Shown in pieces: positions 4,494-62,607 of a stretch of 64,000 bases of DNA. The stretch covers positions 2,116 through 66,115 of the forward strand of contig DAOUEQ010000036.1 of assembly GCA_034430395.1 (NCBI GenBank), written 5' to 3'. How positions within the stretch are numbered: the first letter of the stretch is position 1; each line of letters starts with the position of its first letter. Under the pieces are notes generated by a model that worked only from the letters and a program-made list of their open reading frames with translations, searched no databases and was not told where the DNA came from. Source of the DNA: Anaerolineales bacterium. Its GTDB lineage: Bacteria; Chloroflexota; Anaerolineae; Anaerolineales; E44-bin32. A program made the translations under genes and the position numbers.

Positions 4494-4823
4494 TTAATAT
4501 AAAGGTACTCCAAGCTCGTCGCCCACACCATCCTTGCCATTTGCGACAAGTATATCGCCCCCACTTCCTTCAGCTAGTCTTAGTTTTGCGACAGTGTGGA
4601 AGCTCCCAGGCACCTCTGCATGTTCTCCGGCCACAATTCGCTCGCCGCATTTCAATCGCTCGACAAGCTCCTTGCGGGATAGCAGTTTCAGGTCACCCCA
4701 GATTGGTCCCCGACGAATATAACCTTTCGCAACCCGGACCCGATCTCCCTCAGATGTGTACCTTGCTGCAATGAGGACAACATCGATCTTGCGCGATTCC
4801 TTCGTGACGCGAATCCCTCGCAT
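4494..4823 (-). CDS. Hypothetical protein (109 aa) between two tRNA genes
   Basis: Only an ORF of reasonable composition; no recognisable motif. Confidence 0.4.
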   Translation of the reverse strand: MRGIRVTKESRKIDVVLIAARYTSEGDRVRVAKGYIRRGPIWGDLKLLSRKELVERLKCGERIVAGEHAEVPGSFHTVAKLRLAEGSGGDILVANGKDGVGDELGVPLY

Positions 4824-5860: not shown

Positions 5861-6520
5861 TCACTCGAGCTGGCGTAAGACGAGCATCACTTTACCTTGA
5901 ACCTCGAGGTGTTTAGGATCCTGGATGATGATTGAGTCCATCGTGGGATTCGCAGGCTGTAGCCGGATCTTATTACCTTCATGATAAATGTATTTTAGCG
6001 TCGTCTCTTCGAGATCCCGCAGCCACACCGCCACCATATCGCCATTGCGCCAATGGTAATCGCGCTTCATCACAACAATATCACCATCACTGACCATGGC
6101 ATCGATCATTGAGTCACCCTTGACTTCAAGGGCGAACACTTCATCTGTGGTACTGAGCATGTCGCGCGTGATTTCGATCGCCTCGTCAGCACCAAACATG
6201 GGCGAATCCGTACTGGGAAGATGCACAGGTTCGCTGGCGAAGATACGACCCACCATCGGGATGCGGATCACATCGCCCAGTTTGCCCGTCGCTTTTAACA
6301 GTTTATCAGTGAGGCGGATCCCCCGGGACACGTTCTGATCGCGATCCAGGTATCCCTCTTCCACCAATCGATTGAGATTGTAATTGACAACAGATGTCGA
6401 AGAGATCCCCACAGACTTCCCAATTTGTCGAATGGATGGGGGGTAACCATTATCCGTGGAGAAACTCTGGATAAAATCCAGTATCCGCCGCTGACGGTCC
6501 GTCAATTTTCCCTTCGCCAT
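5861..6520 (-). CDS. lexA: LexA repressor (SOS regulator, S24 self-cleaving)
   Basis: 219 aa from MAKGKLTDRQRRILDFI. It has the wHTH segment PPSIRQIGKSVGISSTSVV and the Ser/Lys dyad context VKGDSM ... VVMKR. GAGGAGG lies 4 nt upstream of the ATG at 6520. Confidence 0.92.
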   Translation of the reverse strand: MAKGKLTDRQRRILDFIQSFSTDNGYPPSIRQIGKSVGISSTSVVNYNLNRLVEEGYLDRDQNVSRGIRLTDKLLKATGKLGDVIRIPMVGRIFASEPVHLPSTDSPMFGADEAIEITRDMLSTTDEVFALEVKGDSMIDAMVSDGDIVVMKRDYHWRNGDMVAVWLRDLEETTLKYIYHEGNKIRLQPANPTMDSIIIQDPKHLEVQGKVMLVLRQLE

Positions 6521-6583: not shown

Positions 6584-6626
6584 GCACACTTGTTCTTATT
6601 CTAACGGAACATACGTTCTATGTCAA
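6584..6626 (-). promoter_or_regulatory. lexA promoter TTGACA-17-TAGAAT with two LexA (Cheo-type) boxes
   Basis: Read on the minus strand: TTGACA (6626-6621), spacer containing GAACGTATGTTC (6618-6607), TAGAAT (6603-6598), then GAACAAGTGTGC (6595-6584). Confidence 0.7.
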
Positions 6627-51206: not shown

Positions 51207-52967
51207 TCATTCCCTAGCTCCAATATCATGCAACCACTTCTTGTTCAACTCGCGGCGACGGCCAGGATCCTTCCCAAGCACAAGCGGTCGCCCACGCGCG
51301 TCGATGATCAAACCAACGGCCCCACCCGCAATGCGCAGTGCTCCTGCTTTCCCGGGTCCTCCGAAGCCGACATCGATCCCGCGTTCAGGTCTGAGCGTAA
51401 GGTGAGCATGCTCACCTTGCCGGATGGGCACAATTGCGAGCTGACCCATTCGAACCTCGCCGACAACGTCCTCACTACTTTGCTCGAGTTCGAGGTGCAG
51501 ACTGAGAATCTTGCGTCCCATCCGGGCATTCCCGACTGGCGACACAACTGTCCCCAGGCTCACGAAGCTTCCGGATTCTAAAACATGTACACTCAGCATT
51601 GGGACCGAGCCTGACGCGGCGCCAAGCGATGGGGAGAGTCCGTGCGGATCTAGCACAAGCGTTGTGATCCCTGTTGGCTCTAAGGCGTCCAACAATGTTA
51701 ATGCAGCATATCCTGGTCGAGGAGCTCTTGCCAAGACACTCCCACTGGCGATAACCGGTTCCACAGGAGGCATTAGCCAAGTTGATTTGAGATCTTTGCC
51801 CTTGGGCCAGCGCTTGCGAGCGCGTTTCAGTGATAGCCGCAGAATCTCACGCGCCAATGCTAATTCTAGAAGAAGATCATCATCTTCGGTAGGAACAGTT
51901 CCCGGGTTAATCGATTTGTTATAGATGTAATCCAAGATCATTCGCTCCGACGTCTCGGATGGCAGCCAACGGGCAATATCGTTGAGACTGCAATGCCGGA
52001 GCAGAGTCGGCAAGGGTTCCCCTAATCCCAAGTCTGTTTCAACACTCAAGCGCAGATCTCCCTCGAATGCTGCAGCGATCATCGTATTGTTTGCGCCTAC
52101 ATCCACACCAAGAACACCCTTCGCCGGGTCGTAGATGCGGCTCAAATAGCGGATCACCCTACCGTACGCGTCAGCAGTGAGCATCATGGTGCCGCCAGAC
52201 CATTGTTCCAATTCATCAAAACCGCGCACCCGTTTATTACGCGCCTCGGCGATCGCCTCTCCGAGCGCCAGACGGGCATGCCCCAGATCCTCCACACGGA
52301 GACTGGGTCTAACATTCGGTGCAAGAGCGATATCGACCCGTTCTCCCACGCGGTCGGCGATCGCGGCGCCCAGATTGCGGTTGCCTGCATATACGATCCG
52401 TGGTCGTTGATTCGGGGGGAAAAGGTCGCTGGCTACAGCGACGAATTCGATTAATTGCAGAACGGAATCCTGCGCGCCGCCATCCGTCCCGCCAACAACG
52501 AGGATCAAGTCCGGGCGGGTGGATAAGATAAGATCAATTTTTTCCGATTCGCGTCGACTATCCAGCAGGTCAATGACACCCACAAGGTCTAAATATGTCG
52601 AATCGGCGAGTCGCAATGCGCTGTCTGTTGAAACTCCCGGCATCAGACCCACAAGTACCGTTCGGACCTTCGGTCCCGCTGAAGCCGTCGCAACGAAAGT
52701 ATCTACACCCGATCCCTGGCTGGTGACGGGCATGATCAGCAAGTCCGTTTCGTCGAGCAATTTCCTTCCTGTAACGGCCAGCACCTGGTCGAGAGCCATT
52801 CGAACACCCTCGCTAATATCGAACAAAGGTGCTTTTGCAGTTGACGGTGCTCGACCAGAAGCGATCAGACGAAAGTGGCCGTCGACGACATCGAATAGGC
52901 TGGCGCGCGTGCTCACGCTGCCCACATCGACAGCCAATATGGTATCGGCATCCATTATCGTACTCAT
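51207..52967 (-). CDS. Actin-fold (ASKHA) ATPase resembling glutamate-mutase accessory protein GlmL/MutL
   Basis: 586 aa with phosphate-1 motif ILAVDVGSVSTRASLFD, the second-lobe motif LVVGGTDGG and later VLGVDVGANNT. Confidence 0.65.
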   Translation of the reverse strand: MSTIMDADTILAVDVGSVSTRASLFDVVDGHFRLIASGRAPSTAKAPLFDISEGVRMALDQVLAVTGRKLLDETDLLIMPVTSQGSGVDTFVATASAGPKVRTVLVGLMPGVSTDSALRLADSTYLDLVGVIDLLDSRRESEKIDLILSTRPDLILVVGGTDGGAQDSVLQLIEFVAVASDLFPPNQRPRIVYAGNRNLGAAIADRVGERVDIALAPNVRPSLRVEDLGHARLALGEAIAEARNKRVRGFDELEQWSGGTMMLTADAYGRVIRYLSRIYDPAKGVLGVDVGANNTMIAAAFEGDLRLSVETDLGLGEPLPTLLRHCSLNDIARWLPSETSERMILDYIYNKSINPGTVPTEDDDLLLELALAREILRLSLKRARKRWPKGKDLKSTWLMPPVEPVIASGSVLARAPRPGYAALTLLDALEPTGITTLVLDPHGLSPSLGAASGSVPMLSVHVLESGSFVSLGTVVSPVGNARMGRKILSLHLELEQSSEDVVGEVRMGQLAIVPIRQGEHAHLTLRPERGIDVGFGGPGKAGALRIAGGAVGLIIDARGRPLVLGKDPGRRRELNKKWLHDIGARE

Positions 52968-52974
52968 AGGCTTC

Positions 52975-53700
52975 TCATGTCCCGCCCACTATTTGGGTAA
53001 GCACATCGTGAAGAAATTGAAATCGCTGCGCCAACACGACAATCGTTGCCATCAGCGCACCAGCATACATCACTCCGAAAGTCACGGCGATGAAGATCTG
53101 ACCAAGATAAGCAAATATTTCAGCAATGCGTGATCGCCGTGCCCCCCCTGTCAGCTCCCGCTGGGCGCTGAAGCGGAAATATATCAATACACTGATTGTC
53201 GCCAGGATCAATACCAACGCGCTGATGAGGTTTTCCAACCATATAGATAGTGGTTCGCCTGAGGTGGTAAAGACGATTTCTTGTGACAGCGTTTCGGCTG
53301 CGGCCCTACTCTGCGGTATCAATGTGCCCGTGATGCTTCCGCCTACAACGACTGCTGCGCCTACACCAACAAGAAGCGCAACCGGTAAACTCCCGAATCG
53401 CGACAGCCGGGGAGAGAGCTTTAATAGCAGAAACAGCACAAGCATCCACGGAATCAGGAATGTAACGGCTCCCTCACGCGAAAACAGACTGACAAGTTCC
53501 TTGTCAATGAGCGGTTGAACAAGTGTGGGTTTTACAACATTAGCCCAGGCGATGGCGCCGGCGAAGCCAGAAGCGATCCCGATGAATAGATATGTCGCAA
53601 TCCGGAAGAGGACATTGTCACCTATCACGTAGCTCAAGATCATCACTGTGACGAATGCAGCAACGATCATTTCGATGAAGTCGAGCGGTAACTCGGGCAT
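52975..53700 (-). CDS. Integral membrane protein (about 7 helices), unknown family
   Basis: 241 aa, uniformly hydrophobic, 7 nt upstream of the ATPase gene. Confidence 0.6.
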   Translation of the reverse strand: MPELPLDFIEMIVAAFVTVMILSYVIGDNVLFRIATYLFIGIASGFAGAIAWANVVKPTLVQPLIDKELVSLFSREGAVTFLIPWMLVLFLLLKLSPRLSRFGSLPVALLVGVGAAVVVGGSITGTLIPQSRAAAETLSQEIVFTTSGEPLSIWLENLISALVLILATISVLIYFRFSAQRELTGGARRSRIAEIFAYLGQIFIAVTFGVMYAGALMATIVVLAQRFQFLHDVLTQIVGGT

Positions 53701-53717
53701 CTAATTTATGTCTCTCC

Positions 53718-55832
53718 TCAACGCTCTCGCAATCTCAAGAGCCACAAACCAACTCCATAGGCTCCGCCCGCGATCAAGATTAATTCAACGGCCAACATCC
53801 CTAGCCCAAAAGCATCCCATTGCACACTTGTATCAAGCGGTAGCCCGCTGTACTGCCGATACGATACGGCTGCCGGTAATCCGGTAAGGATTCCATCCAC
53901 CCTTTTCTCGGAGGCTTCAAAGTAAGGGCGCACAAGCGGTTCCGCTCCAGCGCTCAACACCATCACCAGAGGAGTATCCCCTATCCAGGGGTGGGTCTGT
54001 TCCGCCCAGGTACGTGCTGTATCTGTTCCTGCCGTTATCACGATGACCAGATTGAAATCCGATAGCTGCTGCACACCCTGGAGCAAAGGCGATCCCCAAA
54101 CTGATCCTTCAGAAAGTGACTCGGGAAGATGGTACCCGGATAAAACAACGTTGCGTGGGGCAATCGCAAATAGCTGAACCGCAGTCGGTCCTCCGGAGAG
54201 ATACCCCAGGTGCAGGTAGCTCTCACCATTTACCGCACCGTAATCGGCGCCAATTTGGTTTAGCAACCCCTCCGCCAGTGGTGGTCCCGTTGGGCGGGTC
54301 GAAACGGTTACGATTGGGAGTGAGCGCATTACCGCATGCTCAAGCAAAGCGCCGGCGACAGTATTAAGTTCACCGCTGTAACCGGGTGTGTAATCGAACA
54401 CAACCAGAGCTGGGCGGTCCGCAGGGATGCTGCCGACAAGGTTGAGTAGGTCGCTGAAGTCGGGCGAGACCGCGCTTGGGAGGGCATAACCTTCAACACC
54501 AAGCTGATTGAAACCAAAAGGCAGAATCACAGCGAGAAGCAGGATGAGAGCTATCGCCCAACGCATGAGAGGCAGCCTGCGTCGTTCTGCCTTCACAGGC
54601 GGGATCTCCTTCTCCTCTTCTTCGACAAGACGCTGTAATAGTTCGGCTTGCGCGTATTGACGTTCAGTAACATCCAGTCGAGCTGCTGCAGTGCTCGCTG
54701 TTCGCGGCATGGCGACAACTGGCTCGGCCATTAATACTCCGCGCAATCCAGCAAGCGGTCCCGCTGATTCAACCGGCTGCACTTCCACTGATTCGATCTC
54801 GACCTCTGAACGGAAAGTGTCAACTGGCCGCATAGCTTCAAGCCAGGATGGAAGTGTCGCCGGTGCCAGGTCAGCCGCATCGTCTTCCTCTTGGACCGCT
54901 TGCGGAGTCGATGGTTTCAGTTCCCCCAGCCAATCGGGAAGCTCGATTGAATCCATATCCAAACCAGTAATTTCGGTAAAGGCTTTCTCCTCAGTTTCTC
55001 CGTCGAGCAACGCGGGTACATGAGGGAGACCTTCCGCATCCAGCAATTCGCGCTCGTCGGGGGCAGGGAACCATTCCATCTCCTCCTCAGGAAGTATGGG
55101 TTCACCTACAGCGGGCTGGAAATCATCGTCGATACCCTCAGGTGAGGGCGCGATGTCACCCGCATCGTATGAGGGTATAGGTTTCTCTTGCACCATCTCG
55201 CCTTGAGGTGTCGGAGCGGGCACATCTGGCGGCGGACCAAGATCCAATGCTTGTGGCGCTGGTTGTTCTGTTAATTCCTCAACATCTGGAGAAGGCCTGA
55301 GATCTTCTACTCCGGTTGGCTGCTCAGTGGGCGCTTCATCCCGTAAGCGCGTGATCCAATCTTCATCCTCGCCTGCCCCGGGTTGGGCGTCCGTCTGAAC
55401 TTCCCTTCGAGCTCTAACCCGCGAAAGCCATTCCGGAACTTCTTCCTCCTCAGTAACATCATCGCCAGCGGCTAAGAAATCCTCCATCCAGTCGGGAATT
55501 TCTTCTGTAGGTGGCCCTTCATCGATACTCGAATCAGCCTCTCGCAGCCTTCCCAACCAGTCTGGTGCGGCCTCATCCGGTTCATCCGTCTCCGCTGCAT
55601 TATCTTCCGCTCCTGAGCCCATGATTGCCCCGGCGCGAATGTTCGCCAGCCAATCATCCCCATCGCTGGGCACATCTGATTCCGCAGGTTTAATCCCCTC
55701 CACACCAGATGCCTGTTGATCTGCAGGCGGCATACCAGAGACAAGCGGCGTCAGGCGCGCTTCACAATTGCTGCAGACTTCCGCAGTTTCTGGATTCATG
55801 GTGCTGCACATGGGGCAGCGGATTTCAGCCAT
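53718..55832 (-). CDS. Zinc-ribbon protein with seven acidic (P/D)(D/E/S)W(L/M/I) repeats, one TM helix and a large extracytoplasmic domain
   Basis: 704 aa with the N-terminus CPMCSTMNPETAEVCSNCEARL. The repeats are DDWLANIR, PDWLGRLR, PDWMEDFL, PEWLSRVR, EDWITRLR, PDWLGELK and PSWLEAMR. The TM segment is WAIALILLLAVILPF. Confidence 0.7.
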   Translation of the reverse strand: MAEIRCPMCSTMNPETAEVCSNCEARLTPLVSGMPPADQQASGVEGIKPAESDVPSDGDDWLANIRAGAIMGSGAEDNAAETDEPDEAAPDWLGRLREADSSIDEGPPTEEIPDWMEDFLAAGDDVTEEEEVPEWLSRVRARREVQTDAQPGAGEDEDWITRLRDEAPTEQPTGVEDLRPSPDVEELTEQPAPQALDLGPPPDVPAPTPQGEMVQEKPIPSYDAGDIAPSPEGIDDDFQPAVGEPILPEEEMEWFPAPDERELLDAEGLPHVPALLDGETEEKAFTEITGLDMDSIELPDWLGELKPSTPQAVQEEDDAADLAPATLPSWLEAMRPVDTFRSEVEIESVEVQPVESAGPLAGLRGVLMAEPVVAMPRTASTAAARLDVTERQYAQAELLQRLVEEEEKEIPPVKAERRRLPLMRWAIALILLLAVILPFGFNQLGVEGYALPSAVSPDFSDLLNLVGSIPADRPALVVFDYTPGYSGELNTVAGALLEHAVMRSLPIVTVSTRPTGPPLAEGLLNQIGADYGAVNGESYLHLGYLSGGPTAVQLFAIAPRNVVLSGYHLPESLSEGSVWGSPLLQGVQQLSDFNLVIVITAGTDTARTWAEQTHPWIGDTPLVMVLSAGAEPLVRPYFEASEKRVDGILTGLPAAVSYRQYSGLPLDTSVQWDAFGLGMLAVELILIAGGAYGVGLWLLRLRER

Positions 55833-55835
55833 GCA

Positions 55836-56498
55836 TTATTCCCCGTATGGCCGGTCAACGGCCAGTAAAACACGGAGGCCCGTCACAATGGATCCCAGGG
55901 CTACTCCAAGGAGGATGCCGCGGGCGCCTCCGGCAGCAGCCACCTGCACCAGCCAGTTTCTTAGACCAGCGAAGAAACCGAAGAACAGACTCTCCGTAGA
56001 TATTATGCCTGGTCCGGAACCGATCAACACGAGCAGCGCGGTTCCAACGAATACGAGACTTATGAGATCTCTTCGCTGCGCCACCAGGCGAAAACCAGCA
56101 AGCGACAACGTGATCGCCAGCAAGGCGCTCAGGCTTGTCTCAACAGGCAGCTGGATGGAGTTGAAGAGAAATAGGACCGCACGACTGTCGGGTCCGAAGA
56201 CCAGCCCTAGAATGAGTGTGACCACAAAGGTTACGATCAGTACCGCACTGTACTTCCATCCAGTTTCCTGCTTACTGATCTTTGTCCAGTGGACCAGAAA
56301 TAAATTATACAGACCGATTCCTAGAGAGACTGCCGCCAGCAGAACTGCCCAACGCATGATTAACAGGCGTAATTCAAAAATGTTTCGGACAAGTCCATCC
56401 GCGGGGATTTGATCGAGCTGGACGAAGTAACCCAACAGGACGATGATCCCGGTACCGACGGCCATCGCCGCCCATAATAAATAGGTTCCGATCTTCAA
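55836..56498 (-). CDS. Integral membrane protein (about 6 helices), unknown family
   Basis: 220 aa. A TTG start overlaps the upstream stop (TTGA). Confidence 0.55.
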   Translation of the reverse strand: MKIGTYLLWAAMAVGTGIIVLLGYFVQLDQIPADGLVRNIFELRLLIMRWAVLLAAVSLGIGLYNLFLVHWTKISKQETGWKYSAVLIVTFVVTLILGLVFGPDSRAVLFLFNSIQLPVETSLSALLAITLSLAGFRLVAQRRDLISLVFVGTALLVLIGSGPGIISTESLFFGFFAGLRNWLVQVAAAGGARGILLGVALGSIVTGLRVLLAVDRPYGE

Positions 56499-57244
56499 AA
56501 GCTCACTCCCAGAAGGCTTAGGACAGCACCGATAACGATCCCCGTAATAATGAGCATCCGGACAGCATCCTGCACTCTCAAACTAGCCCTGTGGACTCGG
56601 CCCACATTCAGGTACGCTCCGCCGGCAAAGATTTCCTCACCGATCAAGGGATGCTCAGCAGTCGCATAAAGCAGGGCTTGTGACTGTGCATCATCCGTCC
56701 CCGCTAAGACAAAAGACCCCTGGCGCTCGCCGAAATCGGCCGCCAATGCCCCTTCTGCCCCGAAGGAGCCTGCCAGAACGTGGACTGAGATATCCTCGCT
56801 AGCTAGAAGAATCGGCAAATTGGCAACATATGAAAAGGGTGTGGGTCCTAACATTCGCCCAGAGATGGGGCTATACCGGGACAAGGCTCTAGCCTCGGTA
56901 TACACCCTCCGCAAAGTATCCTGCGCAAGGATCGCCATCGCCCCATCCCCCGTAGTGGCGACAACAGGTTTATCACTCATCGTCGTCGTCTCAGCGATGC
57001 TCGTCAGAATGGCCAGCCCCGCCAGCGCAGGCGCGCTATCTGTCCCGATAACCGATCCTGTTCCTAGCGATAGGTGAACTCGCTCCCCAGCTTCGACCGC
57101 ACGCTCGATCACTCCCTTTAGAGCTTCATAGCCCCTGATGGGCCTGAACGTCGCAGGTCGCCGGCGATCGATGGTCACGAAGAACACCAGAAGACCGACG
57201 AACAACAGTAATATAAAGAGACCGATTTGATCCACTCCGCCCAT
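56495..57244 (-). CDS. Bitopic or two-anchor membrane protein with a soluble central domain, unknown family
   Basis: 249 aa with the N-terminal helix IGLFILLLFVGLLVFFV and the C-terminal helix MLIITGIVIGAVLSLLGV. The ATG overlaps the upstream stop (TAATG). Confidence 0.6.
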   Translation of the reverse strand: MGGVDQIGLFILLLFVGLLVFFVTIDRRRPATFRPIRGYEALKGVIERAVEAGERVHLSLGTGSVIGTDSAPALAGLAILTSIAETTTMSDKPVVATTGDGAMAILAQDTLRRVYTEARALSRYSPISGRMLGPTPFSYVANLPILLASEDISVHVLAGSFGAEGALAADFGERQGSFVLAGTDDAQSQALLYATAEHPLIGEEIFAGGAYLNVGRVHRASLRVQDAVRMLIITGIVIGAVLSLLGVSF

Positions 57245-57435
57245 TATGTATCATCCTTCTTCCTGAGCATCACAATCAGTTCCGAGACGGCATCCGGGTC
57301 TTCCAGTATTTTGCCAAATTCATTCCATGTTCCAGTGGGACCGCCCACGATGGGGTCGATTAAATAAGCCGCTTGAGCGCCCAATGGCAGGATCGGTCCG
57401 CCAGCATCGAGAAAGGCGGCAACAATGCCTCCCAT
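57244..57435 (-). CDS. Small protein (63 aa), first gene of the operon
   Basis: The sequence is MGGIVAAFLDAGGPILPLGAQAAYLIDPIVGG...LRKKDDT. The longer ORF-track version (to 57531) would run into the divergent promoter region. Confidence 0.45.
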   Translation of the reverse strand: MGGIVAAFLDAGGPILPLGAQAAYLIDPIVGGPTGTWNEFGKILEDPDAVSELIVMLRKKDDT

Positions 57436-57614
57436 ACCAGATCGACGAATTAATCGAGCTAGTCTTCGCTGCACCTTAAAAAACCCTCCATCGCCGCGCA
57501 GTATAGCATATCCAGCGCGCGCCGGATACAACCGTGCGCCCCAATACAGAGAGGGGAGAGAAGCCTTACTGGCCGATTGTAGACCGCGGTATTATGCGGG
57601 TCAAGCGGGCGAGA

Positions 57615-57658
57615 TTGCACGCGCTGGGTCTTAGACTATAATTACGAACAGTTGTTCG
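57615..57658 (+). promoter_or_regulatory. nurA promoter TTGCAC-16-TATAAT with a perfect LexA (Cheo) box CGAACAGTTGTTCG over the predicted transcription start
   Basis: The hexamers are at 57615-57620 and 57637-57642, the palindrome at 57645-57658 and the ATG at 57672. Confidence 0.7.
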
Positions 57659-57671
57659 AGAGACAAACACT

Positions 57672-58856
57672 ATGGGAATCCATCTACCATCCTTACTTCC
57701 ACAAATGCAAGAGCTCGGTCAATCCCTCTATGAGCGAAGCCTGCAGTTGTCCAAGATGGTCCCCAAAGCCATTGAAGCCCTGCATGTCACGGCCGATCTC
57801 GATCACTCCGATCTTCAATCCAGAATTATGAAGGCGGGAAATCGCTGGACTGGTGCAATTCCCACCGAAGAAGCGCTCGATCAGACGTTCCCGCCGCCTA
57901 AAGCCCCACAGAGTCTCCACGTGATCGGCGCCGATGGCTCACAGATATATCCGGATCGCCACGCATCAGCGTTCTATTATTTAATCAACATAGGCAGCAT
58001 CGTCGTCTCACGCGGCAACGGCGAAACTCCCACTATCCAGCAGGAATCTCGGCTCTTTTTTGAACTCGAAGACCTTTACGGCGAAGCTGATTATCCCATC
58101 CAGAATGCTTATGTTAATCTGCGGCGTGATGTCGCCGAGATGAAGATCCTCACAGAACGGGCTGAAACCCTGGCTGGCGAGAAGACTCTTGCCATTCTGG
58201 ACAACAGTCTTCTATTGTGGATGGCGCTGCAAACTGGCGGGTCAGCATCTCGGGAGACGGATCGTTACCTCCAGCAGTATCTAAAACTGCTCGATCGTTT
58301 GCACTCCTCGGAGACAGGCCTTGCAGGTTTCATCGACCGCCCGCGGAGTGTAAGCGTGCTTGCCTTGATCCACCTTGCTGGGTTACCAGGCGATCAGATT
58401 ACTCAGGATTCTGTACACCTGACACCCTTCCGCGGTCTAACTGATCGGGCAATTTTCACCCATTTGCTACCACCCGGTCATCGCAGCGCGATTTTCATCT
58501 CAGCGTCACCGTTAAATAGCGACTTCCGCACGGCCGGTCACGAAATCCATTTCTTCTATCTGAAGACTGCCGCTGATGACACGGTTGTGCGAGTCGAAAT
58601 CCCGATCTGGGTCGCACAAGACCCTGAGCTGCTCAATCGTGTTCATGCCGGTATTTTGCAGGATTGCCAGACGACAGGAGGGTTCCCCTATACATTGGTG
58701 CGAGCCCATGAATTGGCGGTTATCCCTCCGCAAGAGCGAGCTGCTTTCGATGATATGCTGCAACGCACGCTCATCGGACACGGTCTGCGCCCTTCACAAT
58801 CTCAAAAAGCACTCACAAAAGAGCTCACCGGAAAGCGGAAACACTATCGGTTATAA
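57672..58856 (+). CDS. nurA: NurA-domain 5'-3' nuclease
   Basis: 394 aa. The motif HVIGADGSQIYPD matches the N-terminal catalytic Asp (xDGS) of NurA. Gene order with a HerA-type ATPase supports the call. Confidence 0.7.
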   Translation: MGIHLPSLLPQMQELGQSLYERSLQLSKMVPKAIEALHVTADLDHSDLQSRIMKAGNRWTGAIPTEEALDQTFPPPKAPQSLHVIGADGSQIYPDRHASAFYYLINIGSIVVSRGNGETPTIQQESRLFFELEDLYGEADYPIQNAYVNLRRDVAEMKILTERAETLAGEKTLAILDNSLLLWMALQTGGSASRETDRYLQQYLKLLDRLHSSETGLAGFIDRPRSVSVLALIHLAGLPGDQITQDSVHLTPFRGLTDRAIFTHLLPPGHRSAIFISASPLNSDFRTAGHEIHFFYLKTAADDTVVRVEIPIWVAQDPELLNRVHAGILQDCQTTGGFPYTLVRAHELAVIPPQERAAFDDMLQRTLIGHGLRPSQSQKALTKELTGKRKHYRL

Positions 58857-58867
58857 CAGGAGGATTG

Positions 58868-59470
58868 ATGCCGGAATCGCCGATGATGATCGGACGCGTG
58901 ACACGCTGCAGCACACGTGGTTTCGTGGGCGCTATGCAGGTATCCGTGAAAGAGGTCCCCGTGTTCGGCTCTTTTTGCCAGGCGGAAGCTCAAAGCGGGC
59001 GCAGTCACGTTGTAGGGCTGGTGTATGACATCAGCATCACGGATGACCACTTCGCTCGGCAAATAGCTGCTCTCGAAGATGTTCCCCAAGAACAAATCGC
59101 GGATGGGCAGATCAACCGCCAGGTTCCCATTGAATTTAACGCTCTGGCCGTCGGCTTCCGCGATGATGCGGGATTTCACCAAGCCCTGCCCCCGCGCCCC
59201 CCTCTTACACTGGCCTCGGTCTTCAGCATGGCGCCCAAAGACACAGTTGATTTCACATCAGAGCTTCATTTTCTACAGACGATTCTGAACGCGCCTCAAC
59301 TCCCTGTCGACGAACTTCTAGCAACCACCTTGCGGTTGTCCGCGCAGATAAGGCCTGAGGGGGAACGCGAGCGGTTTCTACTTCAAGCTGGCCGCGAAAT
59401 CGCCCGCTTGCTCGCCCAAGACCTAACTCGGTTGGAGAACATCCTGCGTGGTCTGCGCTCAGAGGGATGA
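58868..59470 (+). CDS. Hypothetical 200-aa protein between nurA and herA (possible HAS-barrel-like N-terminus)
   Basis: AGGAGG lies 5 nt upstream of the ATG at 58868. The N-terminal MIGRVTRCSTRGFVGAM...HVVGLVYDISI resembles the N-terminal barrel pattern of the downstream HerA (LGIVLEGSLSTGLQVKL...IFFGIITDIAL). Confidence 0.6.
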   Translation: MPESPMMIGRVTRCSTRGFVGAMQVSVKEVPVFGSFCQAEAQSGRSHVVGLVYDISITDDHFARQIAALEDVPQEQIADGQINRQVPIEFNALAVGFRDDAGFHQALPPRPPLTLASVFSMAPKDTVDFTSELHFLQTILNAPQLPVDELLATTLRLSAQIRPEGERERFLLQAGREIARLLAQDLTRLENILRGLRSEG

Positions 59471-59525
59471 ACGATGGTTGACCGCTTACCCCCAACCAGT
59501 GATACTAAGCTCAAGAGGACAATAA

Positions 59526-61187
59526 ATGTCAGACTCATCTGAACTTGACGTTTTTTTCGGTTCCAAACGAGATGAACGCCCTCTGGGGATTGTCCTGGAG
59601 GGATCGCTTTCCACCGGCCTGCAGGTTAAATTAGACCCGCGATATGCAATCGAAAAACTCGCCGTAGGAAGATATGTCGTCATCCAGAGCCGAAAAACCG
59701 GCAGCATTTTCTTCGGGATCATCACCGATATCGCTCTCGGAGCGACCACGCCTGATCTGCTACATCATCCACCCGATGCCTCGGATCCATTCCTGCTCGA
59801 TGTGTATTCCGGCGGGGTGGCCTTCGCCACGCTGCACGTCAGCCCGATGTTAATGCTCGATGATGCGGACGATCAACCCCGCCCCATAAAGACGATTCCC
59901 TCACATTTCTCGGCCATCTATGAGGCAACGGCGCAGGATGTCGCCCGTGTATTCGGAGAGGAGGACGAGGCGCACTTCTTCATCGGAGCACCGCTGGATA
60001 TGGAGGCCGTTCAGGTCAACCTCGATCTAGAAAGGTTCGTTGAGCGCTCATCTGGAGTGTTTGGAAAGACGGGCACAGGAAAATCGTTCATCACACGCAC
60101 GATCCTCGCCGGCATCATACGCTCAGGCCTGGCATCGACGCTGATTTTCGACATGCATAACGATTACGGATGGTCGGTTATGGACGAGACCGGCCGAGAG
60201 TATAAAGGATTGAGGCAGCTCTTTCCAGATGGACGTGTTAGTGTGATCACACTTGATGAGACAACCTCGCGCGCCCGAGGTAGCAAGTTCGATGGGATCC
60301 TTACCATCGGTTATGAGGAGATCGAGCCTGAAGACATGGAAATGTTGGCATCCTTGCTCGGGTTGAGTGACATTCAAACCGGCGCGCTCTACTTCCTTTA
60401 CCAACGTTTAGGCAGGAAATGGATCTCGAAATTACTGGATGAACAGCACGAGGAAGAGATTCAGAATATGCTCGATAGCGGTCGCATTGTGGGAGGAACG
60501 CTGGGAGCGATCCGGCGCAAGCTCGAATCCTTCATCCCTCGCATGGGATTTCTCGTACCCGGTGAGGGGTCAAAGGTGGTCGATGATATCTTCCAACGAC
60601 TCAACATTGGAACGAGCGTTGTCCTTGAGTTCGGAAATTACGGAAACACTTTGGCCGCCTACGTGTTGGTCGCCAATTACCTCACCCGACGTATCCATGC
60701 AAGCTACGTCCATCGTAAAAACATTGCTGCCGGGAAGAAAGGCGAAGAGCCCCGCCCACTCGTGATCGTGATCGAGGAGGCGCATAAATTCCTCGACCCA
60801 AGCGTCGCCGGGCATACGATCTTCGGTAACATCGCCCGGGAGCTGCGTAAATACAACGTGACCTTGCTGATCGTCGATCAGCGGCCGAGCGGCATCGAAG
60901 ATGAGGTGATGAGCCAGATCGGGACTCGGGTGACCTGTTTGCTCGATAATGAAGCCGACATTCGGGCTGTTTTCTCGGGTGTAAGCGGAGCAAGCACTCT
61001 ACGCGAGGTGCTCGCCCGCCTTGACACCCGTCAACAGGCACTCATTCTGGGTCACGCCGTTCCTATGCCCGTAGTCGTCCGCACTCGAGATTACGATCAG
61101 CGTTTCTACGCTGCGATTGGCATGGACGAATCCGATGATGCCTCGGGGGCAAAGCCACCCGCAGAGGACAAACTTTTCCCGGATTGA
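59526..61187 (+). CDS. herA: HerA-like hexameric ATPase/translocase (DUF87 type)
   Basis: 553 aa with an N-terminal barrel, Walker A GVFGKTGTGKSF, Walker B LVIVIEEAHKFL and the later LLIVDQRPS. Confidence 0.8.
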   Translation: MSDSSELDVFFGSKRDERPLGIVLEGSLSTGLQVKLDPRYAIEKLAVGRYVVIQSRKTGSIFFGIITDIALGATTPDLLHHPPDASDPFLLDVYSGGVAFATLHVSPMLMLDDADDQPRPIKTIPSHFSAIYEATAQDVARVFGEEDEAHFFIGAPLDMEAVQVNLDLERFVERSSGVFGKTGTGKSFITRTILAGIIRSGLASTLIFDMHNDYGWSVMDETGREYKGLRQLFPDGRVSVITLDETTSRARGSKFDGILTIGYEEIEPEDMEMLASLLGLSDIQTGALYFLYQRLGRKWISKLLDEQHEEEIQNMLDSGRIVGGTLGAIRRKLESFIPRMGFLVPGEGSKVVDDIFQRLNIGTSVVLEFGNYGNTLAAYVLVANYLTRRIHASYVHRKNIAAGKKGEEPRPLVIVIEEAHKFLDPSVAGHTIFGNIARELRKYNVTLLIVDQRPSGIEDEVMSQIGTRVTCLLDNEADIRAVFSGVSGASTLREVLARLDTRQQALILGHAVPMPVVVRTRDYDQRFYAAIGMDESDDASGAKPPAEDKLFPD

Positions 61188-61356: not shown

Positions 61357-61385
61357 TTGTATTAACAGAACATTTGTGCTATTCT
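61357..61385 (+). promoter_or_regulatory. Promoter TTGTAT-17-TATTCT with a LexA-like box GAACATTTGTGC in the spacer; the ATG lies 7 nt after the -10 (leaderless)
   Basis: The -35 is at 61357-61362, the box at 61368-61379, the -10 at 61380-61385 and the ATG at 61393. The architecture matches the lexA promoter. Confidence 0.55.
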
Positions 61386-61392
61386 GTATACA

Positions 61393-62607
61393 ATGGATCC
61401 TGTAGAAAAACTCGCCATCTCCAGTCGGGAAACCACTTTCGAGGCCGATGGGCTCCCGCTGACAACTCGTCCGAATAACCTTGCCGGTGGTTTACAGCCA
61501 TCCGTGATCAGCAGGCGCTTTGGCGATCCGGACAAGGTCCACCGTGTGCGTTCTGACGGACACGATTTCCACGTTCACCTCGCCGCAAGCGGTGGAGGGC
61601 GTCAGCTTCCCCTGCTTAAGGCCATGCTTACCTCTGCGTGTGAACGGAATTGTAATTATTGTCCTTTTCGCGCCGGGCGAGACTTCCGCAGGGTAACTTT
61701 CAGACCGGAGGAACTCGCACAGACATTCTTCGCTGCCCATCGCTCCGGGCTTGTCGAAGGCCTCTTCCTTTCAACTGGCATCTTCGCCGGCGGGGCAAAC
61801 ACACAGAATAAGCTTCTGGAAACAGCCGAAATCCTGCGCAGGAAGTTTAGCTATCGTGGCTACCTGCATCTGAAGATCATGCCGGGGGCTGAACGCGGCC
61901 AAGTTCTGAGCGCGATGAAACTCGCCGACCGTATATCGACCAATCTTGAGGCCCCCAACGCATCTTGCCTTCAAAAATTAGCCCCGCAAAAGGCGTTTAA
62001 AGAGGAATTGGTTGCTCCACTTCAATGGGCGCAGGAGATTCGCCAAACCTTACCAGCCCATCTTGGGTGGCGCGGTCATTGGCCCACCAGCACCACCCAG
62101 TTCGTGGTTGGCCCGGCCGGAGAGACGGATCTGGAACTCTTGAGCACCGTCGATAATTTGCATCGCCAAGCAGAATTGCAGCGCGCCTATTTTGAGACTT
62201 TTAGTCCTGTTGAAGGAACACCGATGGAGAACCACCCACCAGAGGATCCACAACGCAAGGTGCGGCTCTACCAGGCTTCTTTCTTGCTGCGCGATTATGG
62301 TTTTAATCTGGAGGAACTCCCCTTCGCACCGATAGGTAATCTCCCCAAAGAGATCGATCCCAAGGTGGCTTATGCGAATCAGGTTATCCGCGGGAATCCC
62401 GTAGAAATTAATAAGGCGGATCGCAATGAGCTAATTCGTGTGCCCGGGATTGGCCCACGCGGAGCAGATCAGATCTTGAAGGCACGCGACATATCTAAAA
62501 TCCGCGAACTTGGTCAACTCCGCCGCTTTGGTGTCCTCACCAAACGCGCCGCACCTTATATCACGCTGAATGGAGCCACACCATCCAAACAGCTAACGCT
62601 ATTCTGA
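61393..62607 (+). CDS. Putative DNA modification/repair radical SAM protein with C-terminal helix-hairpin-helix
   Basis: 404 aa with the CxxxCxxC cluster CERNCNYCPF and the C-terminal HhH LIRVPGIGPRGADQILKAR. Length and layout match the TIGR03916-type family as I remember it. Confidence 0.75.
   Translation: MDPVEKLAISSRETTFEADGLPLTTRPNNLAGGLQPSVISRRFGDPDKVHRVRSDGHDFHVHLAASGGGRQLPLLKAMLTSACERNCNYCPFRAGRDFRRVTFRPEELAQTFFAAHRSGLVEGLFLSTGIFAGGANTQNKLLETAEILRRKFSYRGYLHLKIMPGAERGQVLSAMKLADRISTNLEAPNASCLQKLAPQKAFKEELVAPLQWAQEIRQTLPAHLGWRGHWPTSTTQFVVGPAGETDLELLSTVDNLHRQAELQRAYFETFSPVEGTPMENHPPEDPQRKVRLYQASFLLRDYGFNLEELPFAPIGNLPKEIDPKVAYANQVIRGNPVEINKADRNELIRVPGIGPRGADQILKARDISKIRELGQLRRFGVLTKRAAPYITLNGATPSKQLTLF

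Follow-up and report, generated by a model that had tools for sequence, protein, structure and literature searches.

A conserved HAS-barrel-like gene between nurA and herA in a putatively LexA-controlled operon of Anaerolineales

A three-gene cluster and its control region

The 64,000-nucleotide stretch of Anaerolineales DNA analysed here (the window) carries genes for a NurA-type nuclease and a HerA-type ATPase, separated by a third gene for a 200-aa protein, hereafter mid. All three open reading frames lie on the plus strand in the order nurA-mid-herA (Table 1), and our check of the ORFs agreed with the first-pass annotation, made from the sequence without database searches, on the coordinates, the strong ribosome-binding site and the close spacing of the inserted gene. 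An in-frame alternative start of mid, TTG 58865, was rejected, the identical database protein being 200 aa long with an ATG start. No terminator-like site was called between nurA, mid and herA, the sole call in the cluster being a weak site at 58480 inside nurA, and the three genes are predicted to form one transcription unit without an internal terminator.

Table 1. Features of the nurA-mid-herA locus and of the associated lexA gene in the window
Feature	Position	Strand	Remarks
lexA	5861-6520	-	TIGR00498, 173 bits against a cutoff of 111; 51 kb from the operon, same window
Candidate operon promoter	57615-57642	+	-35 TTGCAC 57615-57620; 16-nt spacer; -10 TATAAT 57637-57642
LexA-type operator CGAACAGTTGTTCG	57645-57658		14-nt palindrome; 3 nt past the -10, 13 nt short of the nurA ATG
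nurA	57672-58856	+	394 aa; stop TAA 58854-58856
Ribosome-binding site of mid, AGGAGG	58858-58863	+	4-5 nt upstream of ATG 58868
mid	58868-59470	+	200 aa; ATG 58868, 11 nt past the nurA stop
Predicted domains of the mid product			HAS-barrel, about residues 7-120; linker; five-helix C-terminal domain, about residues 123-197; no ATPase domain
herA	59526-61187	+	553 aa; 55 nt past the mid stop; AAGAGGA in front
Variant box GAACATTTGTGC	61368-61379	+	Ahead of the radical-SAM/HhH gene
Radical-SAM/HhH 'DNA modification/repair' gene	61393-62607	+	Separately promoted neighbour; TIGR03916 E=1.4e-74, below model cutoff
Genes flanking the trio			DUF6754/MutL(PF13941) block and radical-SAM gene

The outer two genes were assigned to families, and both of their initial identifications held. 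The nurA product matches PF09376 (E=1.8e-27; 96.9 bits against a cutoff of 21) over positions 3-254 of the 254-position model and, by family, would be an RNase-H-like 5'-3' nuclease. Among 50 homologues, conservation is 97% or higher at D88 (in GADGSQ), E156, D177, H325 and H346, which follow the expected order. The D/E/D/H order of the P. furiosus NurA active site (D51/E105/D126/H411; PMC3300031) appears to be kept, as a conserved-residue pattern only, since no solved NurA aligns at the sequence level; a sequence search of the PDB with the window NurA found no relative. The herA product matches the DUF87/HerA central domain (PF01935; E=6.9e-29, 102 bits against a cutoff of 23.2), has a Walker A motif (GKTGTGKS) at residue 180 and a Walker B motif (VIVIEE) at residue 413, and finds HerA chains in the PDB by phmmer (8wiv, 9x1l, 4d2i; E=1.7e-21 to 1e-7).

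We regard HerA as a putative FtsK/HerA-type hexameric DNA translocase with a barrel of its own, the N-terminal HAS-barrel apparently residing on the same polypeptide as the ATPase. PADLOC HerA models cover residues 17-214 and the C-terminus (best E=3.1e-38), and precomputed matches to the HAS-barrel family PF09378, mostly weak, exist for the HerA orthologues of loci L001, L052-L054 and L056, with a faint one in L055. The orthologues of L057 and L058 have no PF09378 match, and the window HerA also stays below the Pfam HAS-barrel threshold.

Upstream of nurA, an alignment of 14 loci revealed TTGC and TATAAT as conserved islands amid unconserved sequence, and it is for this reason that we call the operon promoter, which a generic promoter scan did not list. 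The conserved footprint reads TTGC, about 16-17 nt, TATAAT, 3-4 nt and then GAACnnnnGTTCGA. Within the window operator lies the core GAACAGTTGTTC (57646-57657), which has the form GAAC-N4-GTTC, the LexA motif established for Gram-positive bacteria (PMC3323433). Perfect boxes of this form occur twice in the 64 kb against 1.03 expected by chance, so that counts alone are not significant and the significance of the nurA box comes from its position and conservation: 44 of 46 related loci have a box, perfect in 38 of them, at a distance of 22-28 nt ahead of the nurA start, the background being 0.022 perfect boxes per 206 bp. The sole other perfect box of the window (6607-6618) lies upstream of lexA, together with a one-mismatch box (6584-6595), and the product of this lexA gene is presumably the repressor of the nurA-mid-herA operon. 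Both the conservation of the nurA box and the pairing with lexA strengthen the earlier suggestion that the LexA box argues for a role in repair. We predict that LexA binds the nurA operator and that the operon is induced by DNA damage. The radical-SAM/HhH gene downstream is probably a member of the same regulon rather than part of the NurA-HerA complex; in all 10 loci that retain it, AGAACAnnTGTGCTAT(T/A)(C/G)T stands directly before its start codon.

Conservation and predicted fold of the middle protein

The middle protein is annotated in the database only as 'hypothetical protein', and it gave zero matches to Pfam, NCBIfam and PADLOC models, in keeping with the first impression that it has no recognisable family. 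Its sequence places it in a large family of proteins of about 200 aa: 189 close homologues all measure about 198-202 aa, a profile search with the family reached 697 cluster representatives (50% identity), and two further subfamilies add 4074 and 869 proteins. Full-length homologues number in the thousands, span 26-90% identity and keep the motifs, with LPPxPP at residues 107-112 nearly invariant across the family. The dN/dS of mid (0.12-0.19) is similar to that of nurA (0.12-0.15), herA having values of 0.06-0.07, and points to purifying selection on the middle gene.

Synteny, one of the checks on the middle ORF proposed at the outset, is also conserved. In all 49 loci recovered from GTDB species representatives, down to 31-39% identity, mid adjoins nurA and/or herA, and the plain order nurA-mid-herA is found in 46 of them; two of the remainder end at a contig edge, and in one (L046) a gap of about 1.6 kb precedes herA.

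The AlphaFold2 model of the middle protein (pLDDT 84.4, pTM 0.79) consists of a β-barrel and a helical bundle. When it was compared with the PDB by Foldseek, the best 50 matches were all HerA chains, at E=3e-5 to 4e-3 and with alignments of about 135 columns (range 123-165), including those of DUF4297-HerA, TdpA, Sir2-HerA, S. solfataricus HerA, and the HerA-NurA systems of T. kodakarensis and D. radiodurans. The predicted fold is hence that of a HAS-barrel. At the sequence level, the window protein falls below the PF09378 gathering score and has no match even at E<=1, and the assignment relies on the predicted structure together with homology traced via other members of the family: 11 of 28 diverse relatives match PF09378, and the most distant subfamily scores 27-31 bits against a gathering score of 25.2. 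Together, the model, the uniform HerA matches and these relatives support the earlier proposal of a detached barrel. The pattern from which that proposal had started, a likeness between the N-termini of the middle protein and HerA, stood in part: an hhalign comparison of the middle family with the cognate HerA N-termini recovered the same register, but the sequence similarity is weak (P=0.008 over 39 columns) and marginal on its own. It is the fold and the relatives, not the N-terminal sequence pattern, that carry the case for the barrel.

As modelled, the middle protein is a distant HAS-barrel relative: barrel and linker helix are still present, the ATPase has been lost, and a five-helix domain of its own has been acquired. 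This last domain is well conserved and predicted with high confidence (pLDDT 93.9); compared with PDB folds, it gave no significant match (best E=1.2), nor did it match any nucleic-acid-binding family or fold. The protein is acidic (pI 5.2), with a net charge of about -4 in the barrel and about -2 in the C-terminal domain.

Relation to known systems and possible roles of the free barrel

NurA-HerA is the textbook end-resection motor of archaea, and the bacterial version has only recently come under study. To our knowledge, the NurA-HerA complexes solved so far are all two-component. The window operon resembles the D. radiodurans system (PDB 7F6D; PMC9960219) in combining a NurA nuclease and a HerA hexameric translocase in one operon, in the N-terminal HAS-barrel of HerA, which there is the NurA docking site, and in its DNA-damage context. 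Whereas D. radiodurans has two genes and its NurA-HerA functions as a two-protein 6:2 complex (PMC9960219), here a third gene, whose product is predicted to combine a free HAS-barrel and a novel helical domain, is stably inserted, and a LexA operator appears to exert control; moreover, the window HerA is not close to its D. radiodurans counterpart, 7f6d being absent from the phmmer matches at E<1e-5. The herA-mre11-rad50-nurA operon of archaea (Sulfolobus, Pyrococcus, Thermococcus; PDB 4D2I, 9X1L) comprises the same two enzyme families with the same presumed chemistry, in which HerA feeds DNA to NurA, and the D/E/D/H pattern appears to be kept in the window NurA. However, gene order is different, and so is the inserted gene: neither mre11 nor rad50 was found between or beside the genes of the window operon, where only the 200-aa barrel gene separates nurA from herA, and the setting is that of a bacterial SOS regulon. 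With respect to PF09378 as known from HerA, the fold predicted for the middle protein corresponds to the N-terminal portion of HerA chains and its relatives pass the Pfam threshold, but the barrel here is a separate polypeptide without an ATPase, extended by the five-helix domain, and in the window protein it is too divergent for the Pfam model. The cluster is probably a three-part variant of the known DNA-end-processing machine. While NurA-HerA itself is known, we found no prior description in the literature of this free-barrel three-gene variant or of a free HAS-barrel middle protein, which has neither a name nor a Pfam family of its own.

In solved HerA complexes, a ring of six HAS-barrels forms the platform for the NurA dimer, and because NurA docks on this ring, we infer that the free barrel sits at the NurA-HerA interface. 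For D. radiodurans, binding of NurA through the HAS-barrel ring of HerA has been reported (PMC9960219). The interpretation we favour, at about an even chance of being correct, is that a LexA-repressed chromosomal three-gene operon encodes a NurA-HerA DNA-end-processing machine with an undescribed extra subunit, most likely a stoichiometric adaptor at this interface. DNA damage would lead to RecA-stimulated cleavage of LexA and de-repression of the operon; once NurA, the middle protein and HerA had assembled, duplex DNA would be driven into NurA by the HerA motor, and the resected ends would enter recombination. Between HerA and the NurA dimer, the middle protein may build a barrel collar or lengthen one, or it may clamp NurA as the HerA barrel does; DNA ends, or a further repair protein, could find a new binding surface in its helical domain. 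As HerA already has a complete barrel, an extra one is not obviously needed. A bolder version of the adaptor model, which we consider possible but doubtful, is that the free HAS-barrel forms a ring of its own, so that the machine would have three tiers (motor, extra collar, nuclease) and handle its substrates differently, and that the operon represents a previously unrecognised LexA-induced pathway of double-strand-break resection, standard in Anaerolineae and equipped with further regulatory genes in other phyla.

What distinguishes the arrangement is a third, strictly linked component that appears to be made from the very domain mediating nuclease docking. Chloroflexota are abundant in sediments, wastewater and anaerobic digesters, and the free barrel gene is present in thousands of environmental genomes, mostly from this phylum. 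If the middle protein is an adaptor or a gate, HerA-type motors may exchange or regulate effectors by duplicating the docking domain, with a bearing on the many HerA-based defence systems. The conserved LexA operator, in turn, predicts that NurA-HerA belongs to the SOS regulon of the lineage and suggests a break-processing route for these bacteria.

Rather than joining the two enzymes, the free barrel might restrain them, as a decoy or regulator that mimics the docking surface of HerA and, bound to the NurA dimer or capping the HerA collar, keeps NurA from assembling or acting until released by a DNA end or some other signal. The same fold evidence and the docking of NurA on HAS-barrels fit this role, a second barrel could compete with the one that HerA already has instead of adding to it, and co-transcription at a roughly equal dose would be apt for stoichiometric inhibition of a dangerous nuclease. 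However, co-induction of the inhibitor with its enzyme from one LexA-controlled promoter would provide no obvious temporal control, and the conserved private helical domain, along with LPPxPP, suggests functions beyond mimicry; we consider such a regulator unlikely, if the most credible of the alternatives. Somewhat less probable still is that the middle protein acts outside the interface as an OB-fold- or ring-like binder of DNA ends or lesions, which recruits NurA-HerA or passes the product to RecA. The DNA channel of HerA is lined by HAS-barrels, one study classes HAS-like barrels together with small DNA-binding β-barrels (bioRxiv 10.1101/2025.10.09.681413), and SOS regulation and repair neighbours would be compatible with such a role, but the acidity of both domains is atypical of a DNA binder and no match to a nucleic-acid-binding family or fold was obtained for the C-terminal domain.

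Considering that HerA-type ATPases with an effector docked on the barrel face are also found in anti-phage systems (Sir2-HerA/Nezha, DUF4297-HerA, TdpAB), and that HerA chains of these systems are the best structural matches of the free barrel, the trio could serve defence against phages or plasmids, with HerA driving NurA as the effector and the barrel as sensor or accessory; an end-resection and a defence role had both been entertained at the outset. Many PADLOC HerA models match the window HerA, which among PDB sequences matches a Sir2-HerA chain best. Three genes stand ahead of the trio in other phyla, encoding a STAS-GHKL ATPase, a STAS/wHTH-like protein and a protein with a weak SH3 match only; a DNA methyltransferase follows the trio in L054, and a transposase lies near one locus. 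Against this, no PADLOC model matches NurA or the middle protein, HerA scores 85 bits where the NCBIfam HerA_antiphage model demands 800, and neither an anti-phage HerA equivalog match nor a cognate effector (Sir2, DUF4297 or TdpB) beside herA was found at the locus. Furthermore, the operon is kept in every recovered species representative with conserved flanks, and its LexA operator is conserved and common to lexA and the repair-type radical-SAM gene. GC content is flat (0.53-0.56), the upstream gene block is conserved in one relative at 59% identity, and in another subfamily the operon lies downstream of the mismatch-repair gene mutL; searches of the IMG/VR, phage and plasmid collections returned no relatives, and no mobile-element association was found. 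These features suggest a vertically inherited, chromosomal, housekeeping context, and a defence function is in our judgement distinctly improbable. That mid is what remains of a duplicated and now decaying herA 5' end, or else a miscalled ORF without function, is scarcely credible despite its bare annotation and missing family assignment, being effectively refuted by its conservation (thousands of full-length homologues with conserved motifs, low dN/dS) and further contradicted by its strong ribosome-binding site and the confident predicted fold of both domains.

Variation and covariation of the cluster

Some variation of the cluster speaks against the adaptor model. Other lineages carry additional genes within or ahead of it, so the composition of the machine is not fixed. 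An exploratory comparison of pairwise distances at 35 loci showed that those of the middle protein keep a partial correlation of 0.59 with NurA and of 0.78 with HerA, whereas the correlation between NurA and HerA vanishes (-0.04) after controlling for the middle protein, a pattern that could be explained by an intermediate evolutionary rate of the middle protein alone. At one locus (L053), which likewise counts against the model, mid and herA form a pair with no nurA called adjacent to them. The same nurA-mid-herA trio recurs in a MAG labelled Latescibacteria and in other large contigs.

Operon layout and the predicted fold of the middle protein

The 200-aa ORF between nurA and herA encodes, according to structure prediction, a stand-alone HAS-barrel (the N-terminal HerA domain PF09378) with a private helical domain and without an ATPase. 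This reading is based on the predicted fold, on structural matches to HerA, on PF09378 matches in relatives and on the separate folding of the helical domain, all structural evidence on this protein being predicted. The AlphaFold2 model, built with 34 homologues (pLDDT 84.4, pTM 0.79), comprises a β-barrel (residues 7-120) with one disordered loop (71-84), followed by helices (123-197). When the model was compared with the PDB by Foldseek, the best 50 matches were all HerA chains (E=3e-5 to 4e-3; 123-165 aligned columns, about 135 for the top matches), including those of DUF4297-HerA, TdpAB, Sir2-HerA, S. solfataricus HerA, T. kodakarensis HerA-NurA and D. radiodurans HerA-NurA. Moreover, PF09378 is matched by 11 of 28 diverse family members, and members of the most distant subfamily, at 27-31 bits, exceed its gathering score of 25.2. 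The suggestion of the first-pass annotation that this ORF is a detached barrel is thus borne out by the fold, the Foldseek matches and the PF09378 matches. The N-terminal resemblance to HerA, proposed at the same time, was found in the same register but proved marginal in strength: hhalign of the family against the cognate HerA N-termini gave P=0.008 over 39 columns, which is consistent with homology without being evidence on its own.

Modelled alone, the C-terminal 80 residues form a five-helix domain (pLDDT 93.9), for which neither a significant Foldseek match in the PDB (best E=1.2) nor a sequence match was found. The middle protein matched no model in Pfam, NCBIfam or PADLOC, and searches of PDB sequences returned chance matches only, both for the protein alone (interferon gamma at E=0.17) and for the family and C-terminal profiles (ABC transporters at E>0.4).

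The three ORFs lie on the same strand, exactly where they had been called at first (table below). The middle ORF starts 11 nt past the nurA stop, herA begins 55 nt after the middle ORF, and a site scan found no terminator-like sites between the three genes; GC content is flat across the operon region. The assignment of the 394-aa protein to NurA likewise held: Pfam NurA is matched over its full length (E=1.8e-27), and the conserved acidic/His pattern appears to be kept. The HerA central domain was recognised in the 553-aa protein (E=6.9e-29), which also matches many HerA models and, with its Walker A and Walker B motifs, is predicted to be an intact ATPase. This HerA retains its own N-terminal barrel besides the free barrel protein.

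Features of the operon, its surroundings and the predicted LexA-type sites (dN/dS is pairwise against six relatives)
Feature	Position	Strand	dN/dS	Details
lexA	5861-6520	-		TIGR00498, 173 bits; passes NCBIfam equivalog threshold
One-mismatch box	6584-6595			directly upstream of lexA
Perfect box	6607-6618			directly upstream of lexA
Divergent six-gene block	51207-57531	-		upstream of operon
TATAAT	57637-57642			upstream of nurA
Perfect box	57646-57657			GAACAGTTGTTC
nurA	57672-58856	+	0.12-0.15	394 aa
Middle ORF	58868-59470	+	0.12-0.19	200 aa; AGGAGG 4 nt before ATG
herA	59526-61187	+	0.06-0.07	553 aa; own AAGAGGA upstream
Radical-SAM/HhH 'DNA modification/repair' gene	61368-62607			TIGR03916-like, below cutoff; range includes the variant box at 61368-61379

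Conservation and linkage of the middle gene

Sequence comparison indicates that the middle ORF is a genuine gene, widespread and tightly linked. A first search yielded 189 homologues, nearly all of 198-202 aa and all annotated 'hypothetical protein'; where an organism is named, the source is a metagenome-assembled genome (MAG) of Anaerolineales or Chloroflexota. The alignment of these homologues contains 43 invariant positions. When 1.84 billion cluster representatives were searched with a profile, 697 were returned, mostly of about 200 aa, and two more distant subfamilies, whose members public annotations also label hypothetical, contribute a further 4074 and 869 proteins. Near-invariant throughout the family are two glycines, the LPPxPP motif (residues 107-112) and D185/L189.

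The ORF is conserved in synteny: a scan of GTDB species representatives recovered 49 loci, of which tblastn with the three window proteins shows 46 in plain nurA-middle gene-herA order, two others (L038 and L042) cut by a contig end and one (L046, see below) with herA further away, although, because the scan was seeded with the closer alignment A1, these loci are biased towards Anaerolineae and give no measure of nurA-herA operons without the barrel gene. Linkage with nurA and herA persists even at middle-protein identities as low as 31-39%. Three long representatives (P0227, P0254 and P0267) were considered as NurA-barrel fusions; their linkers are garbled, and we take them for frameshifted or merged calls that support only the adjacency of nurA and the barrel gene.

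Taxonomy outside Chloroflexota consists of MAG labels, some evidently mis-binned. Loci L004, L017 and L045 carry near-identical or typical Anaerolineae versions of the operon under the names Methanosarcinales archaeon, Phycisphaera mikurensis and Thermoanaerobaculia bacterium, which probably reflect binning errors and not lateral transfer.

A predicted LexA-type operator before nurA

The box before nurA follows the TATAAT element after 3 nt and is itself followed, 14 nt later, by the nurA ATG. It has the GAAC-N4-GTTC pattern, which is the motif of LexA in B. subtilis, in M. tuberculosis and, more generally, in Gram-positive bacteria (PMC3323433). The 64 kb contain two perfect boxes, which is the number given by chance. 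Nevertheless, we regard the site as a predicted LexA-type operator that is conserved, because the second perfect box precedes lexA, because 44 of 46 related loci have a box 22-28 nt ahead of the nurA start (perfect in 38 of these, against a background of 0.022 perfect boxes per 206 bp), and because only TTGC, TATAAT and the box prove conserved when 14 diverse upstream regions are aligned. These observations uphold the LexA box of the first-pass annotation. The perfect and one-mismatch boxes before lexA look like classic autoregulation.

The radical-SAM/HhH gene downstream of herA has a variant box, AGAACAnnTGTGCTAT(T/A)(C/G)T, which is fused with a -10-like element just some 9 nt ahead of the start codon and is conserved in 10 of 10 related loci that keep the gene, which suggests a leaderless, LexA-controlled transcript.

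Proposed role of the free barrel and variant arrangements

Both enzymes belong to the families of bacterial and archaeal NurA-HerA, and the operon would work like those systems. It differs from them in that the third gene is obligatory here, all related loci examined keeping the free barrel with both enzymes, in its predicted LexA control, and in the absence of mre11/rad50. Full-text literature searches found no paper on a stand-alone HAS-barrel gene in a nurA-herA operon, nor on LexA control of nurA-herA.

In NurA-HerA, the NurA dimer docks onto the ring formed by the HAS-barrels of HerA, with four barrels touching each NurA and the DNA threading the pore of the barrels (PMC9960219). We infer that the free barrel acts at this interface. 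With moderate confidence, we favour a role as a stoichiometric adaptor or extra collar between the HerA motor and the NurA nuclease, in which the helical domain would offer a new binding surface. Partial correlations of distance matrices link the middle protein to NurA (0.59) and to HerA (0.78), whereas the NurA-HerA correlation falls to -0.04 after controlling for the middle protein; this exploratory pattern fits an 'in-between' protein, and a rate artefact could produce the same.

The main rival, which we consider unlikely, is that the free barrel mimics the HerA barrel and thereby restrains NurA. A role as a DNA-end-binding factor appears doubtful indeed, being weakened by the acidity of the barrel protein. 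That the trio serves in defence is less probable still, given the predicted SOS operator, the vertical conservation of the operon and the lack of a mobile-element link, no relatives of the middle protein having been found in IMG/VR, GenBank phages or PLSDB plasmids.

The most distant subfamily could represent a form of the module that is regulated or defence-like. In its loci (L054, 1299-7336; L056, 1307-7231; L058, 1027-7391; L055, 220-5195; one in a MAG labelled Latescibacteria), which lie outside the Anaerolineae-type arrangement, three conserved genes precede the trio, encoding a STAS-GHKL ATPase (about 290 aa), a STAS/wHTH-like protein (about 190 aa) and a ~235-aa protein whose sole match, a weak one, is to SH3; the trio of L054 is followed by a gene for an N6/N4 DNA methyltransferase.

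Other loci vary within the operon. In L052 (2986-10186), from another Anaerolineales subfamily, the order is mutL-nurA-barrel-471-aa protein-herA, where mutL encodes a true mismatch-repair MutL and the 471-aa protein has no family; therefore, a fourth gene can sit inside the operon. A 189-aa ORF separates nurA from the barrel gene in L057 (3230-7219). In L053 (4238-7216) the barrel gene and herA share a 4-nt overlap, and upstream of the barrel gene no nurA was called, DUF4058 genes and a transposase being found there instead. In L046 (4294-6177), from a Chloroflexia MAG, herA lies about 1.6 kb further downstream (6177 versus about 4600-4700 elsewhere) and tblastn aligns the barrel protein over residues 7-104 only, which may reflect an insertion between the two genes or a disrupted barrel gene.

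The six-gene block upstream of the operon encodes a 95-aa protein, a DUF6754 protein, a 220-aa membrane protein, a very acidic 704-aa protein with a zinc-ribbon-like motif at its start, a 241-aa membrane protein and a PF13941 'MutL' actin-like ATPase. In L001, whose middle protein is only 59% identical, the entire block is likewise conserved beside the operon.
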